Shown in pieces: positions 527-62,724 of a stretch of 64,000 nt of DNA (position 1 is the stretch's first letter; each line of letters starts with the position of its first letter). The DNA is from Candidatus Hodarchaeota archaeon (GTDB lineage: Archaea; Asgardarchaeota; Heimdallarchaeia; Hodarchaeales; Hodarchaeaceae). The position numbers were made by a program, and so were the translations under genes. The stretch covers positions 6,835-70,834 of the forward strand of contig JAEOTQ010000168.1 of the NCBI GenBank assembly GCA_016839785.1, given 5' to 3'. The notes below the pieces were generated by a model that saw nothing but the letters and a program-made list of their open reading frames with translations, searched no databases and had not been told where the DNA came from.

Positions 527-730
527 ATGATGATTCCAATTCGATGTTATACCTGCGGTAAAGTTATTGCTCATCATTATGAGGAATTTTTAGATGGCCT
601 AAAGGCTGGTAAGGAAGCATCAGAGTTACTAGATTCATTCGAATTGAAACGATACTGCTGTAGAAGAATGTTAATAACACATGTCGAGCTCATTGATGAT
701 ATTCTTACTTTTTCAAGCCCAATTCGTTAA
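527..730 (+). CDS. rpoN: DNA-directed RNA polymerase subunit N (Rpo10)
   Basis: 67 aa. MMIPIRCYTCGK...RYCCRRML is the Rpo10/RpoN zinc-binding signature. It sits beside a ribosomal protein gene. Confidence 0.9.
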   Translation: MMIPIRCYTCGKVIAHHYEEFLDGLKAGKEASELLDSFELKRYCCRRMLITHVELIDDILTFSSPIR

Positions 731-734
731 TTTC

Positions 735-843
735 AGCCCCGTAGTGTAGTGGCCCATCATAGAGAGTTCTATATTACGAGTTAGCTTGTTGTAGAACCGT
801 GAAGAAAGTCTCTCTGACCTCAGTTCGAATCTGAGCGGGGCTA
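735..843 (+). tRNA. Intron-containing tRNA with a tRNA-Gln-like body; predicted intron 773..808; predicted mature anticodon CUA
   Basis: Acceptor AGCCCCG/CGGGGCT with discriminator A. D arm GTGTAGTGGCCCATCAT. Anticodon stem GAGAG/CTCTC. Variable loop TGAC. T arm CTCAG-TTCGAAT-CTGAG. A BHB motif is present (central helix TTCT/AGAA, bulges ATA and AGT, inner helix TTACG/CGTGA). The tRNA call is firm; the anticodon identity is less certain. Confidence 0.8.
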
Positions 844-861
844 TCTCAGAAGGAATTCCTC

Positions 862-1773
862 ATGGTACGACAAATCGGTGTTCTAAGCCGAAGTAAAGAC
901 TATTTTCCGACAACCAAACTGCTTGAGGACATTAATCAAAGATATACAGTTTCTGGTGTTTTCTTATCGACACAATATGTTTTTCCATTGGTCAGTTCTT
1001 CAGGAGTTGATGCTCGGTTTGCGAACCAATCATTACTTCCTCTATTGGGAGTTGTTCCACGTATTGGCAGATCTCAGACAAATCTCGGTTTAATATGTTT
1101 GAATCATTTTCAATTAATGGGCATTCCAAGTACTCTTTCAGCAGAAGCGCTGTTTCTTTCAAGGGATAAATTTCGTTGTTATCAAACATTATCAAAAATA
1201 AAAGGAATTCAATTGCCCAGAACGATCCTAATAAACAACTCATTTCAAGTGGATCAATTGTTAAACGCCTTTAAATTTCCAGTTGTATTGAAATTGCTTG
1301 ATGCAACACGAGGGAGCGGAACTATGTTGGCTCCTAATCCAAAAACCGCAGAAGAGATCGTCGAATCATTATTTATGCGATCTTCAGAACCAATTATGAT
1401 CCAAGAATATTTGCAGCCCAGTTCACAATATAATGCATCGCCCTCTGCTGATATACGAGTAATTTACATAGGAAATGAGATAATCGGAAGCATGAAACGA
1501 GTTGCTCCAAAGGGAGAGTGGAGGACAAATTTTGCCCTCGGAGCACAATGTGAAACATATCAATTATCATCTGAAGATGAGGAGCTCATACATCAAATTG
1601 CAGAGAGAATTGGCATTGAAGTAGCTGGAATTGACTTATTTCCAACTCAAAATGGCTCCTATGTCCTTGAAGTTAATGCCTGCCCTGGATGGAAAGCATT
1701 TGAAATGGCTAATCCCGAGATAAATGTGGCTAAAAAAATAATCGATTATTTATTGACCAAAATACGTCGGTAG
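862..1773 (+). CDS. ATP-grasp ligase, RimK/LysX family
   Basis: 303 aa. ATP-grasp motifs PVVLKLLDATRGSGTML, IMIQEYL, ADIRVIYIG and YVLEVNACPGW. TAG stop. Confidence 0.8.
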   Translation: MVRQIGVLSRSKDYFPTTKLLEDINQRYTVSGVFLSTQYVFPLVSSSGVDARFANQSLLPLLGVVPRIGRSQTNLGLICLNHFQLMGIPSTLSAEALFLSRDKFRCYQTLSKIKGIQLPRTILINNSFQVDQLLNAFKFPVVLKLLDATRGSGTMLAPNPKTAEEIVESLFMRSSEPIMIQEYLQPSSQYNASPSADIRVIYIGNEIIGSMKRVAPKGEWRTNFALGAQCETYQLSSEDEELIHQIAERIGIEVAGIDLFPTQNGSYVLEVNACPGWKAFEMANPEINVAKKIIDYLLTKIRR

Positions 1774-2970: not shown

Positions 2971-3741
2971 TTGAGTCAATCAAATGGAAATTCTTTCAGC
3001 TACTTCCACAAGCTAGTAGACGTTAAATTAAAGTCCCCAACAGTTGTTATCCAAGGATTACCTGGTATGGGGCTCATTGGAAAGATCGCGGCTAATTTTT
3101 TAATCGATCAATATGATGGAATTGAAATAGCACGTGTTTATAGTTCATTTTTCCCTCCTGTTGTCCAAATTGACAACGAACAAGGAGTGGGTCAACTAGC
3201 CCGAATGGAAATTTATGCAATCACAAAAACCTCTCCAAACTTATTAATATTAACAGGAGATGCTCAACCCCACGATATTGGTATTATTCAAGTATTAAAC
3301 GAAGTACTGGATTTCGTAATAAATCTAAAAGCCGAGACGGTCGTGTGTTTAGGTGGATTGAGAGCATTGGAAGAAGGTCCAGAAGTGGCTGCATTCGGAT
3401 ACAACAAGGAAACTATGAAATGGTTAGAGGAGTATGACATCACTCCATTAAAAGGAGGAGAAATAACGGGAGCAGTTGGAGTTTTCTCCGCATTAGCCGC
3501 TGAAAAAGGTTTACGAAGTTTTGGTTTACTTGGAAAATTAACATTAGTTGGTACTGATCCATTAGCAAGTAAAAATCTCCTGAAACGATTAGCAAAACTC
3601 TTTTCTCTTGATTATAAGTATGATGATTTGGATGGTATCATCGAGGAAGCAGTCCAGAAAAATGACTTACTCCATCAAGCGGAAGAAGCAGAAAGCGGAT
3701 CAGATGATGACAGCTCTCGTGGACCCAGTTATTATATTTAA
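2971..3741 (+). CDS. PAC2 (DUF75) proteasome-assembly-chaperone family protein
   Basis: 256 aa with a TTG start. The N-terminal VVIQGLPGMGLIGKIAANFLID motif is typical of the PAC2 family. Acidic C-terminal tail. Confidence 0.6.
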   Translation: MSQSNGNSFSYFHKLVDVKLKSPTVVIQGLPGMGLIGKIAANFLIDQYDGIEIARVYSSFFPPVVQIDNEQGVGQLARMEIYAITKTSPNLLILTGDAQPHDIGIIQVLNEVLDFVINLKAETVVCLGGLRALEEGPEVAAFGYNKETMKWLEEYDITPLKGGEITGAVGVFSALAAEKGLRSFGLLGKLTLVGTDPLASKNLLKRLAKLFSLDYKYDDLDGIIEEAVQKNDLLHQAEEAESGSDDDSSRGPSYYI

Positions 3742-3742
3742 T

Positions 3743-5020
3743 TCAATGGGAAAATAGGTTATTCTCTTCAGCAAATTGAATTCTTCTTCGAAATAGCTCA
3801 GTGATGGCAAAGGATACTACAGTCAATGCTAGCATAAATAGTAATCCACCAACTGGCGATTGGAACGTATCTAAAAGTGCACCGAAGATCGTGGGGGAAA
3901 TAGAGCTAATAATAAGCCCTAGTGAAAAAACAAGTGAATAGAAAAAGGTTCTATCACCCGCGGGGACTAAATCAGCCTGTAATGCTTGTAATGTTCCTCC
4001 CGCTAGATAAAATCCAATAGCAAATAGAGAAAATCCGAGAATAATCACTAGAATTTCGGGAAAACCCAGAGTAATTACAATAAGCCCAGTAATTGCCAGA
4101 CTAGAAATGAGTGCCGAAATTAGTATTATTCTGATTCTCCCACGTGGACCCAAGCGATCAGAATTGATTGCTCCATAGATATCAGAAATAGATCCTAAAA
4201 GGAGAATAAAACTGGTTATAACTCCTGCATTGAAAGCTTCGACATGATAAAAATTCTTCAATAAAGTGGTCGTAAAATAGCTGATAGAGCGATAAACTCC
4301 ACCTCGTAATGCACTTATTAAAATAATTATAGCTAAACTCGTTATAATCCACTTTCGGTGGGGAGAGGAGCGAATGGAAGTACTGCTCTCCAACTCACTG
4401 ACAGTTTTTTCTTTTTCTCTTGATTTCAATAGGGATTCAAAGTTTCCAATCAAATTTTCAAGTAAAATCCAAGAAATGAGACTAAATACAAGAAGAATGC
4501 AAAACACACCAAGGAGGAAAAAGGTCGATCTCCAAGTGAAAAAAAAGATAGCTAAAGTTAAGGTGCTAATGGGACTAACAGCGGTTCCAATCACACCTGC
4601 TGCATGGTTGATAGCCATGGCTTTTCCCCGATTGCGATCTGAAAAAGAATTTGCGCAGACCCCTAATCCCACAGGATGATAAGTTGTACAGCCAAGACCA
4701 AGAATAATATTACCAAAAAACAATCCCAAGAAATCATTGGCCATCGAAATCCAAAAACTTGAGACAGCAAATAGAAAGATCCCCATAAGGACTATGAAAA
4801 ATCCTTTAGCAGCCTTTTTTCCTAAATATCCAATAAGTGGAGAGGTCAAAGCCATGATTAATGACGGAAGAGACCCTAATATTCCCATCTCAAGATAACT
4901 GAGAGGAATGTCCGTAATAATCAGAATGAGCAAAGCTGGAAAGGCATACAACAACACATGATGAATAAAGTGGGATATTGACATAAATCCGAGCAATTGG
5001 TGGCGAATATTCAATGACAA
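3743..5020 (-). CDS. MFS-type transporter
   Basis: 425 aa, strongly hydrophobic with about 12 predicted TM segments and a central hydrophilic loop. TGA stop. Confidence 0.7.
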   Translation of the reverse strand: MSLNIRHQLLGFMSISHFIHHVLLYAFPALLILIITDIPLSYLEMGILGSLPSLIMALTSPLIGYLGKKAAKGFFIVLMGIFLFAVSSFWISMANDFLGLFFGNIILGLGCTTYHPVGLGVCANSFSDRNRGKAMAINHAAGVIGTAVSPISTLTLAIFFFTWRSTFFLLGVFCILLVFSLISWILLENLIGNFESLLKSREKEKTVSELESSTSIRSSPHRKWIITSLAIIILISALRGGVYRSISYFTTTLLKNFYHVEAFNAGVITSFILLLGSISDIYGAINSDRLGPRGRIRIILISALISSLAITGLIVITLGFPEILVIILGFSLFAIGFYLAGGTLQALQADLVPAGDRTFFYSLVFSLGLIISSISPTIFGALLDTFQSPVGGLLFMLALTVVSFAITELFRRRIQFAEENNLFSH

Positions 5021-61411: not shown

Positions 61412-61545
61412 GGGCGCATAGCTCAGCAAGGTAGAGCGGTGGGCTCTTAGAAAAGGATTTAATAAATATATTTCTTCTGATAGAAGTATTCATGAATTCT
61501 TTTAGAGAGACCCATTGGTCGGGGGTTCAAGTCCCTCTGCGCCCG
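61412..61545 (+). tRNA. tRNA-Lys (anticodon CUU) with a 60-nt canonical-position intron (61450..61509)
   Basis: Acceptor GGGCGCA/TGCGCCC. D arm GCTCAGCAAGGTAGAGC. Anticodon stem GTGGG/CCCAT. BHB motif: CTCT/AGAG central helix, bulges TAG and AGA, inner helix AAAAG/CTTTT. The mature loop is CUCUUAA. T arm GGGGG-TTCAAGT-CCCTC. Confidence 0.9.
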
Positions 61546-61656: not shown

Positions 61657-62724
61657 ATGAAGCTCATTCAAAAAAGTGGCTCTTTTAATGGAGTTAAACT
61701 TCCCCTTATTCAAGCAGAAGAAGCTCGTCTTCGATTAATAAAGGCAGGAATTCTATTAAAGTCAAAGAAGATATTCAACAATCACGAATTTGTTTTTTTT
61801 CCAATTTCAGATTCAGTGAGCGCTTCTGACGTTCTCGGGGGTCTTGAATATCAATTAGTCTATCATATTTTTCCTGAAGAGTTTTTAAAACCTTCGGTTT
61901 TAGATTTACTAAAAAAAGAATTTCCTAATGAGCCATGGGACAATATTTCGATAAAATTTGATCAGATTGGAGAAATTGGGCTTTTACGATTAGATGACGA
62001 GATAACCTCGAGAGAGTTTCGCACCAGTGCAGGGAGTGCGATAATAAACGCATATCCGAAGATTACCACCGTAATGAATAAATTAGATGTTACTGAAGGA
62101 ATAGAGAGAATTTTTCCCATAGAACTTCTAGCTGGAGAAGAAAAATATGAGAGTTGGCATAAAGAATATGGAGTCTTGATAAAAGTTGACTTAAGGAGAG
62201 CATATTTTAATCCTCGACTTGCCGAGGAACACAGACGTCTTGCGTTGGAAATTTCTCGTGGAAACCGAATTCTGGATTTATTTACTGGAGTAGGTCCCTT
62301 CGCTCTCCATTGTGCGAAGGCACAAAATTGTGAAGTAATTGCAGTGGACATTAATCCCTACGCAATAAAGAGTTTAAAAGCCAGCATTAAGCGAAATAAG
62401 CTTAAAGGATCAATAATCCCTCTCGTTGGGGATGCTGGAGAAATTTTTAGAACTAAAAGGCACTTTGACAGAATAATAATCAATTTACCTAATCTTTCTA
62501 TTAATTACCTAGAATACACATCTAAACTGATAAAGGATGGGGGAATCATTACATTTTACCAATTTATGGAGAAAATTGAACAACCTGAACAATTCCTAAG
62601 TACAATAATTTCGAAAAAGCTTATGAATGTCTGTAATCATGAAATTCTAAATATTCGTGTTGGCCGCGAGGTCTCTCCCTCTAAAATTCAGCTAAATGTA
62701 GACCTAAGAATATCTAGTGTATAG
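61657..62724 (+). CDS. trm5: tRNA (guanine37-N1)-methyltransferase Trm5/Taw22 family
   Basis: FDQIGEIGLLRL, RILDLFTGVGPFALHCA, VIAVDINPYA, and NLP at the catalytic loop. Confidence 0.8.
   Translation: MKLIQKSGSFNGVKLPLIQAEEARLRLIKAGILLKSKKIFNNHEFVFFPISDSVSASDVLGGLEYQLVYHIFPEEFLKPSVLDLLKKEFPNEPWDNISIKFDQIGEIGLLRLDDEITSREFRTSAGSAIINAYPKITTVMNKLDVTEGIERIFPIELLAGEEKYESWHKEYGVLIKVDLRRAYFNPRLAEEHRRLALEISRGNRILDLFTGVGPFALHCAKAQNCEVIAVDINPYAIKSLKASIKRNKLKGSIIPLVGDAGEIFRTKRHFDRIIINLPNLSINYLEYTSKLIKDGGIITFYQFMEKIEQPEQFLSTIISKKLMNVCNHEILNIRVGREVSPSKIQLNVDLRISSV

Follow-up and report, generated by a model that had tools for sequence, protein, structure and literature searches.

Transfer RNAs that carry the amber anticodon CUA and derive from glutamine tRNAs are known both from suppressor mutants and from variant nuclear codes. 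Suppressors of the supE type (glnV44 of E. coli and the SUP70-type alleles of yeast) arose from tRNA-Gln(CUG), which was turned into tRNA-Gln(CUA) by the change G36A, and eukaryotes whose nuclear codes read UAR as glutamine (ciliates, some green algae and diplomonads) carry tRNA-Gln(CUA/UUA). The reassignment of UAG to glutamine recurs in eukaryotic nuclear codes. Context on such codes is provided by PMC5304391 and PMC11687900. Stop reassignment is thought to start with a mutant tRNA in competition with the release factor, and natural long-lived examples of this opening stage are scarce. Here we describe a tRNA gene of a Candidatus Hodarchaeota archaeon (Hodarchaeales, Asgard archaea; assembly GCA_016839785.1, contig JAEOTQ010000168.1), which is located at positions 735-843 on the forward strand of a stretch of 64,000 nucleotides (64 kb). 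This whole stretch is referred to as the window and, unless another locus is named, coordinates are those of the window. After removal of an intron the tRNA carries CUA on a glutamine-type body; a housekeeping tRNA-Gln(CUG) was converted to CUA and has long been retained in genomes in which TAG continues to serve as a stop codon.

The window gene resembles the supE-type suppressors in its parent isoacceptor, in the change at position 36, in the otherwise unchanged glutamine body and in the fact that TAG is still a stop codon of the host. The supE-type alleles are, however, laboratory or sporadic mutants that are charged by glutaminyl-tRNA synthetase (GlnRS) and have a purine at position 37, whereas the window gene is wild-type, is fixed across an archaeal subclade and carries U37 and a bulge-helix-bulge (BHB) intron. 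In its domain, moreover, Gln-tRNA is produced by way of glutamyl-tRNA synthetase (GluRS) and GatDE. With the eukaryotes that read UAR as glutamine it has in common that the tRNAs are natural, conserved derivatives of normal tRNA-Gln genes; theirs read UAG. In those eukaryotes, however, TAG encodes an amino acid genome-wide and does not serve as a stop, while here TAG ends about 27-29% of the genes.

Archaea that use pyrrolysine (Pyl) likewise have a CUA tRNA beside UAG stops (PMC12626013; PMC9499178; bioRxiv 10.1101/2024.09.30.615893), and class B tRNAPyl also has a pyrimidine next to CUA (C37 there, U37 here). These archaea differ in that their tRNA works with PylRS and Pyl, has an architecture of its own and serves identifiable genes with in-frame TAG, whereas the tRNA described here has the body of a tRNA-Gln. 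In Loki- and Thorarchaeia that lack pyl genes, Sun et al. (2021) described orphan 'tRNAPyl' genes on the basis of Prokka calls; these two groups were the only ones for which that study gave Pyl-type tRNAs, and a loss of Pyl was inferred there for the branch to Heimdallarchaeia (PMC9723677). The window gene resembles these cases (PMC9723677) as an Asgard tRNA with a CUA anticodon and, among the open reading frames (ORFs) of the window, without Pyl machinery. As far as their published description goes, it differs from them in being of the glutamine type and descended from a CUG gene. A 2024 preprint, which proposes an all-TAG-as-Pyl code, states that Archaea had until then had no established alternative genetic code. 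Neither a CUA tRNA of the Gln type in Heimdallarchaeia or Hodarchaeales nor archaeal stop-to-Gln decoding was found to have been reported in the full-text literature.

Structure and identity of the tRNA gene

The region 735-843 on the forward strand is a real tRNA gene with an intron in a canonical BHB motif. Its parts are the following.

735-772, forward strand: 5′ exon, with the 5′ strand of the acceptor stem, the D arm, the 5′ strand of the anticodon stem and loop positions 32-37 (UUCUAU)
767-770, forward strand: 5′ strand (TTCT) of the central 4-bp BHB helix, partner AGAA at 803-806; 96.9% of alignment cells paired
769-771, forward strand: anticodon CTA (C34 at 769, U35 at 770, A36 at 771), followed by T772, the unusual U37
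771-773, forward strand: 5′ bulge ATA, with the cut behind its second nucleotide
773-808, forward strand: BHB intron of 36 nt at the canonical position 37/38
774-778, forward strand: 5′ strand (TTACG) of the inner helix h′, partner CGTGA at 798-802
803-806, forward strand: 3′ strand (AGAA) of the central BHB helix, from the BHB scan and covariation
807-809, forward strand: 3′ bulge AGT, with the cut behind its second nucleotide, which makes T809 position 38
809-843, forward strand: 3′ exon, with position 38, the 3′ strand of the anticodon stem, the variable loop, the T arm, the 3′ strand of the acceptor stem and the discriminator A

From the acceptor stem through the two splice sites (slashes) the gene reads AGCCCCG-TA-GTGTAGTGGCCCATCAT-A-GAGAG-TTCTAT/ATTACG...GAAGAAAG/T-CTCTC, and after the anticodon stem it continues with TGAC-CTCAG-TTCGAAT-CTGAG-CGGGGCT-A. 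The acceptor stem (AGCCCCG at 735-741, CGGGGCT at 836-842) contains the pair A1-U72 and is followed by the discriminator A843, with which the gene ends; CCA is absent from the DNA. The D arm corresponds to GTGTAGTGGCCCATCAT, the anticodon stem to GAGAG (762-766) and CTCTC (810-814), the 4-nt variable loop to TGAC and the T arm to CTCAG-TTCGAAT-CTGAG.

The pre-tRNA was scanned exhaustively for the BHB geometry, i.e. two 3-nt bulges, one on each strand, that enclose a 4-bp helix and are themselves flanked by helices. By far the best motif comprised 16 pairs and had the hBHBh′ geometry (h of at least 5 bp, H of 4 bp and h′ of 5 bp), while the runner-up comprised 10 pairs and was incompatible with a tRNA. 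Excision of 773-808 yielded a 73-nt tRNA that folded as a cloverleaf, with CUA followed by U37 in a 7-nt loop (UUCUAUU) carrying U33; the predicted spliced exon junction is GAGAGUUCUAU/UCUCUC. The identical scan and cut rule reproduced the CUCUUAA loop of the tRNA-Lys at 61412-61545. The initial annotation had proposed the same motif, the same cut with CUA and U37 as its outcome and the same loop for the tRNA-Lys, all of which the scan bore out. Other BHB registers, and a second intron that would bring in the TTG of the intron, were rejected since no alternative motif was found and TTG was not conserved. In the minimum-energy fold of the window sequence, GUAGAAC of the intron (791-797) pairs with GUUCUAU (766-772) in a 7-bp helix that competes with the BHB. 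This helix was conserved in the window and in two orthologues (L123 and L130) but not in two others (L128 and L129), and it was rejected as the relevant fold.

A glutamine-type body had also been claimed in the initial annotation, and three lines of evidence agreed with it, i.e. matches to an 18-mer, a tRNA-Gln consensus and the CUG orthologues treated below. One genome per prokaryotic species was searched for the 5′ 18-mer AGCCCCGTAGTGTAGTGG, and 120 matches were fetched. Among these, all 83 intronless tRNAs called by ARAGORN were tRNA-Gln(CUG/UUG); the matches listed were almost exclusively non-Asgard tRNA-Gln genes. The acceptor/D-arm signature of archaeal tRNA-Gln, AGCCCCGUAGUGUAGUGG..AUCAU, is present in the window tRNA. 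Compared with a consensus of 65 archaeal tRNA-Gln sequences, the spliced tRNA was identical at all positions of at least 95% conservation with two exceptions, namely G36 (here A) and one stem pair that was altered on both sides. The A1-U72 pair and A73 of archaeal tRNA-Gln are present as well, and A1-U72 was kept in seven of eight orthologues (L132 has C72). The remaining hallmark, a YUG anticodon followed by G37, is replaced by A36 and U37 in the loop UUCUAUU.

The tRNA finders dealt with this gene inconsistently. ARAGORN gave no match at 735-843 without its intron option; with introns it delimited a tRNA precisely as 735-843 and gave it an intron of 36 nt, but labelled it Phe(AAA), because the intron was positioned without regard to the BHB. 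With the same option, five orthologues were given CUA and labelled 'tRNA-Pyl(cta)'. Gln-like tRNAs of other archaea that ARAGORN called 'Stop(UUA)' or 'Pyl(CUA)' all proved to be UUG or CUG after BHB splicing. The Rfam tRNA model had the tRNA-Lys at 61412-61545 as its sole match in the window and did not match 735-843 either at the gathering threshold or at E values up to 10. It also missed the ordinary CUG orthologues of two relatives (L133, 2745-2854; L138, 2738-2845), so that the negative result at 735-843 is uninformative. The Rfam misses and the ARAGORN labels together indicate that intron-containing tRNA-Gln genes are likely to be absent, wrong or mislabelled in Asgard annotations.

The ARAGORN label on five orthologues, together with the orphan 'tRNAPyl' calls published for Loki- and Thorarchaeia (PMC9723677), could suggest that the window tRNA is a tRNAPyl, either a remnant or an active part of a pyrrolysine system. 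Such an identity was refuted by the structure of the tRNA and by its orthology to tRNA-Gln(CUG), and the chance that it applies is practically nil. In tRNAPyl the D loop is small and lacks G18G19, the T-psi-C consensus is missing, a single base links the acceptor and D stems, and the variable loop has 3 nt. The window tRNA, by contrast, has G18G19, the T loop TTCGAAT, a two-base linker (T8 A9) and a variable loop of 4 nt. No pylS or pylBCD was found among the ORFs of the 64-kb window. More generally, the window ORFs included no gene for an aminoacyl-tRNA synthetase, an amidotransferase, a release factor or any pyl function as a partner of the tRNA; genes for GluRS and GatDE were likewise absent from the window.

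Orthologous loci and origin of the CUA anticodon

The tRNA gene lies in a row of conserved genes, with ribosomal protein S2 (partial) and rpoN upstream and a RimK-family ligase, RadA and a PAC2 protein downstream. Its two immediate neighbours are the following.

527-730, forward strand: rpoN (RNA polymerase subunit N), stop codon 4 nt upstream of the tRNA
862-1773, forward strand: RimK-family ATP-grasp ligase gene, start codon 18 nt downstream of the tRNA

Close relatives of the RadA protein are annotated as Candidatus Hodarchaeales or Heimdallarchaeota, B3_Heim included, and through them the orthologous regions of other assemblies were collected. The block (ESCRT genes)-S2-rpoN-[spacer]-RimK-RadA-PAC2 was conserved across assemblies (ESCRT, endosomal sorting complex required for transport). 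A CUA gene between rpoN and RimK was found in at least seven independent assemblies and in six distinct sequences. In four Joint Genome Institute (JGI) samples (L124-L127) the tRNA was identical to that of the window. Further CUA genes were found in L123 (B3_Heim, GCA_003144275.1), L128 (GCA_016840035.1), L129 (GCA_016839815.1) and L130 (GCA_019057635.1), and in L132, which is much more distant than the other CUA lineages. Loop positions 32-37 read UUCUAU in all six distinct sequences. A metagenome scan yielded one additional real orthologue (L132) and one chance match (L131); the JGI samples with L124-L127 were missing from its results, so that little can be concluded from an absence there.

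Three distant relatives, i.e. L027, L133 and L138 (complete genome CP070760.1), carried an intron-containing tRNA-Gln(CUG) at the same place, in the order S2-rpoN-tRNA-Gln(CUG)-RimK-RadA. The 4-nt distance between rpoN and the tRNA was identical, and the intron site was that of the CUA type, with the loops UUCUGG/U in L133 and CUCUGG/A in L138 and L027. In the alignment, CTG and G37 of these genes occupied the columns of CTA and T37 of the window. The presence, likewise between rpoN and RimK, of a CUG gene that is interrupted by an intron at the identical site shows that the CUA gene is its G36A and G37U derivative. The CUA gene is thus orthologous to a normal tRNA-Gln(CUG), from which it differs in the anticodon region by two adjacent changes, and its origin is settled by the sequence data. 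We are highly confident that it represents a real, conserved CUA tRNA descended from tRNA-Gln(CUG).

In two further lineages, L001 and L002, no tRNA was present in the rpoN-RimK spacer, and alignment scores for a tRNA remnant in these spacers fell inside the range of shuffled sequences. A neighbour-joining tree was calculated from S2, RpoN, RimK and RadA (851 ungapped columns, 200 bootstraps). A single branch (94.5%) separated the CUA-bearing lineages and both tRNA-less lineages on one side from the three CUG lineages on the other. The T stem showed a similar division: position 50-64 was U50-A64 in all CUA tRNAs, C50-G64 in L133 and L138, and U50.G64 in L027 (953-1060). The U50.G64 of L027 is intermediate between the CUG-type and CUA-type T stems, and the change at 50-64 may bear on binding of the elongation factor. 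The simplest history comprises a single CUG-to-CUA conversion, retention in clade A and L132, and later loss in L001 and L002. Since L001 and L002 live with no tRNA gene between rpoN and RimK, the subclade must have the means to decode CAG encoded elsewhere, which suggests that the tRNA-Gln(CUG) gene was redundant when it changed. CUA is shared by lineages with only about 67% identity in their RimK and RadA proteins.

These comparisons also bear on further claims of the initial annotation. A sequence error, which it had offered as one option, is refuted by the independent assemblies and distinct sequences. Its G36A was correct for position 36 but was not the sole change, as G37U had also occurred, and its description of the locus as core holds within the subclade only, where two nested lineages have lost the gene. 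It had also named CUG in all orthologous loci, together with a lack of expression of this copy, as a finding that would speak against an amber tRNA; CUG was confined to the three distant relatives. Its option of a resident tRNA with an amber anticodon fits the conserved CUA gene in orthologous loci best, with decoding remaining putative.

The spacer before RimK measured about 135-145 nt in L132, L133 and L138. L132 (2606-2712) has C72, so that the first pair of its acceptor stem is the mismatch A1.C72, and a single mismatch is present in its central BHB helix. A viral origin of the CUA tRNA was rejected, as the gene is syntenic and a pattern scan of viral contigs gave no match.

Selection on the gene and its possible roles

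Among the six distinct CUA sequences, 8 of the 73 exon columns were variable compared with 28 of the 38 intron columns, and pairwise identity between lineages amounted to 94-99% in the exons and about 42-72% in the introns. The window and L132 were identical at 69 of 73 exon positions and at 15 of 36 intron positions; for the functional CUG pair L133/L138 the exon value was 64 of 73. In an alignment of eight sequences, 96.6% of the cells were compatible with the cloverleaf and BHB pairing, compared with 36-54% when the partners were slid. Ten pairs changed on both sides among the eight orthologues, and none of 500 shuffles reached the observed values. All five pairs of the inner BHB helix changed on both sides, the variants across lineages being TTACG/CGTGA, GCACG/CGTGG, ACAT/ATGT (L128) and AGACGG/CCGTTT, and the anticodon stem pair G27-C43 was replaced by A27-U43 in L129. 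Within the bulges the exon bases (A36 and U37) were invariant and the neighbouring intron bases varied, the third base of the 5′ bulge being A, T or G, which agrees with the predicted cut sites. The gene is under purifying selection in several deep lineages. The paired changes in the anticodon stem and the BHB indicate that a correctly spliced anticodon arm was selected and not just the acceptor and T arms, and on these sequence patterns the product is probably a functional, spliced RNA.

The gene might instead be a pseudogene, i.e. a redundant copy of tRNA-Gln(CUG) that lost its activity through the anticodon mutations and is slowly decaying. Two adjacent substitutions in the functional core (G36A and G37U), the outright loss in L001 and L002 and the A1.C72 mismatch of L132 could be explained in this way. 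However, its exons show no less conservation than those of the functional CUG orthologues, although most of the intron sequence has diverged, paired changes have maintained the anticodon stem and the BHB helices, and CUA persists across lineages as far apart as their RimK and RadA proteins indicate. Inactivation followed by decay is therefore considered very improbable. A recently mutated or decaying tRNA-Gln(CUG) had been among the options of the initial annotation; the descent from CUG was borne out by L027, L133 and L138, while recency and decay were contradicted by the conserved exons and the paired changes.

The leading hypothesis is that of a weak amber decoder, with a non-decoding role next. 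According to this hypothesis the tRNA would be charged via the Gln pathway, and UAG would mostly be a stop and occasionally be read as Gln; on the sequence evidence we regard this as an evenly balanced proposition. The tRNA would be co-transcribed with S2-rpoN, as is apparently the case for the CUG orthologues: no promoter-like box of its own was visible for the window tRNA, unlike for the tRNA-Lys, and the tRNA lies 4 nt past the rpoN stop, which makes co-transcription with rpoN probable. RNase P and RNase Z would release it from the transcript, the conserved BHB would be cut by the Asgard (alpha-beta)2 splicing endonuclease and the halves would then be ligated. Asgard archaea possess such an endonuclease of broad specificity (PMC5829648), so that the relaxed BHB motifs of L123 (weak h′) and L132 (one mismatch in H) appear tolerable. 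After splicing, CCA would be added. A non-discriminating GluRS would then charge the tRNA with Glu, which GatDE would convert to Gln; this route is proposed because the whole tRNA-Gln body including A1-U72 has been retained. The GatDE complex of M. thermautotrophicus reads A1-U72 and the D loop and not the anticodon. On the ribosome the tRNA would pair with UAG and insert Gln in competition with the release factor aRF1. Pairing would be weak, because a pyrimidine at position 37 stacks poorly beside the A36-U pair, and the result would be a poor decoder that leaves UAG mainly a stop, with low-level or gene-specific readthrough. Class B tRNAPyl is a natural CUA tRNA with C37 whose suppression is raised by C37A (PMC9499178), and a dual meaning of UAG is documented in Methanosarcina for Pyl (PMC12626013).

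Several observations weigh against a decoding of UAG. TAG was the stop codon of 16 of the 55 window ORFs of at least 100 aa, among them those for TFB, agmatinase, aCPSF1, SHMT, riboflavin kinase, Trm5b, FEN1 and RimK. In profile or orthologue alignments, all of these named genes reached their end at TAG. In loci of the CUA lineages TAG accounted for 27% of the stops and was not depleted, the sets available for comparison being small. No in-frame TAG was found within the window or in related loci, and no credible pair of substantial ORFs in the window merged when TAG was read as sense. Backup stops were not apparent either, as the next in-frame TAA or TGA was no closer after TAG than after other stops. 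RimK ended in TAG in every CUA lineage, and reading this TAG as Gln would give a hypothetical extension ...KIRR-Q-RENLIYPLKK (KIRRQRENLIYPLKK). A functional readthrough of RimK was rejected, since the in-frame extension was not conserved and the conservation after the stop resembled a radA promoter. The stretch AGAGAGAAAACCTAATATA at 1774-1795, directly after the RimK stop, was conserved in L001, L002 and L123-L130 and is probably the promoter of radA, consisting of a TFB recognition element (BRE) and a TATA box. The coding sequences thus carry no sign of UAG being read. Moreover, the loss of the gene in L001 and L002 shows that it is dispensable at least there, charging presupposes that GluRS accepts A36, and the invariance of the six loop bases taken alone is not significant at the present divergence (about 0.7 variable sites expected). 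To our knowledge U37 is nearly unheard of in elongator tRNAs, and it may abolish decoding.

The organism is not recoded, and a reassignment of TAG to Gln across the genome was not observed. This agrees with the initial annotation, which had stated that TAG terminates conserved ORFs without interrupting any and had seen no global recoding. UAG reading, if any, is weak or takes place at sites outside the examined DNA. Judging from sequence, the question of whether the tRNA decodes UAG in vivo is close to balanced, if anything leaning slightly towards the negative. A stable dual meaning of UAG in this Hodarchaeales subclade, mostly stop and sometimes Gln, brought about by a converted tRNA-Gln(CUG), is a tentative and rather doubtful proposition. 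If true, it would constitute a long-lived natural 'ambiguous intermediate' of UAG-to-Gln reassignment. It would also be the first stop-to-standard-amino-acid decoding in Archaea, and would occur in the order to which the closest kinship with eukaryotes has been ascribed (10.1101/2024.07.04.601786). If active, the tRNA would provide a natural system for how cells tolerate an ambiguous stop codon and would allow pyrimidine 37 to be tested as an evolved attenuator of suppression.

The lack of a footprint of UAG reading in coding sequences and the poor suitability of U37 for decoding are also consistent with a tRNA-shaped RNA that is kept for a non-decoding role, with CUA and U37 keeping it off sense codons. 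It could be a Glu/Gln-tRNA donor for a tRNA-dependent enzyme or an RNase P/Z 'punctuation' between rpoN and RimK, or it could supply regulatory tRNA fragments. The gene is separated in clade A by 4 nt from rpoN and by 18 nt from the RimK start, with neither terminator nor promoter in between, which would suit a punctuation, and it was lost in two lineages with no visible consequence. A processing signal, however, needs only acceptor and T arms, yet the anticodon stem and BHB were kept by paired changes. The longer spacers of L132, L133 and L138 indicate that a tight punctuation is not ancestral, and no partner enzyme is encoded nearby among the window ORFs. We consider a non-decoding role unlikely, though worth serious attention; the gene would then be a conserved tRNA with a new job.

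The long-term conservation of the CUA tRNA could also be explained by a dedicated decoder for a few genes with TAG at Gln positions, located elsewhere in the genome, in a mobile element or in a virus. It would resemble the Pyl system, in which the tRNA is used in few genes while TAG stays a stop elsewhere, and dual-meaning UAG has a precedent in archaea (PMC12626013). A gene class of 1% or less would escape a sample of 55 genes. On the other hand, the 64 kb and the related loci contained no in-frame TAG, viral contigs gave no such tRNA in the pattern scan, and the gene has a chromosomal location, with a housekeeping tRNA as its orthologue, and is not situated on a mobile element. A dedicated decoder is accordingly regarded as improbable.

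Finally, a post-transcriptional correction, e.g. of A36 to inosine, would let the anticodon read CAG and leave an ordinary tRNA-Gln. It would account for the absence of a suppressor effect in coding sequences and fits the normal use of CAG, which made up 30% of the Gln codons, GAG and AAG holding an equal share among theirs. Such editing is hardly to be expected: we know of no enzyme that edits position 36, the accompanying G37U would be left unexplained, and L001 and L002 do without the gene, so that other tRNAs decode CAG in the subclade.

Neighbouring genes and further features

An ESCRT cluster (a UQ_con ubiquitin-conjugating enzyme, Vps28, EAP30, two Snf7, Vps4 and ESCRT-II) was located immediately upstream of S2-rpoN at 590-7878 of L128 and in other relatives; the window begins inside S2, just past the position of this cluster. 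In another Hodarchaeales lineage a TnpB/OrfB_IS605 gene was inserted between RimK and RadA (L136, 2635-3843; L137, 779-1987). In one of the JGI assemblies, L125, a frameshift split RimK into two ORFs (2992-3902). Otherwise L125 was close to L124, with the same RadA protein and an identical aligned tRNA region, and the split is either an assembly error or a pseudogene.

Within the window, the tRNA-Lys(CUU) at 61412-61545 (forward strand) has a canonical BHB intron of 60 nt and its own TATA-like box upstream, and it adjoins the gene for Trm5b, a tRNA m1G37 methyltransferase (61657-62724). The ORF at 28130-29794 (forward strand) encodes a protein of 554 aa in which an S-adenosylmethionine-dependent methyltransferase domain is fused to a domain similar to CdhD, the delta subunit of CO dehydrogenase/acetyl-CoA synthase.

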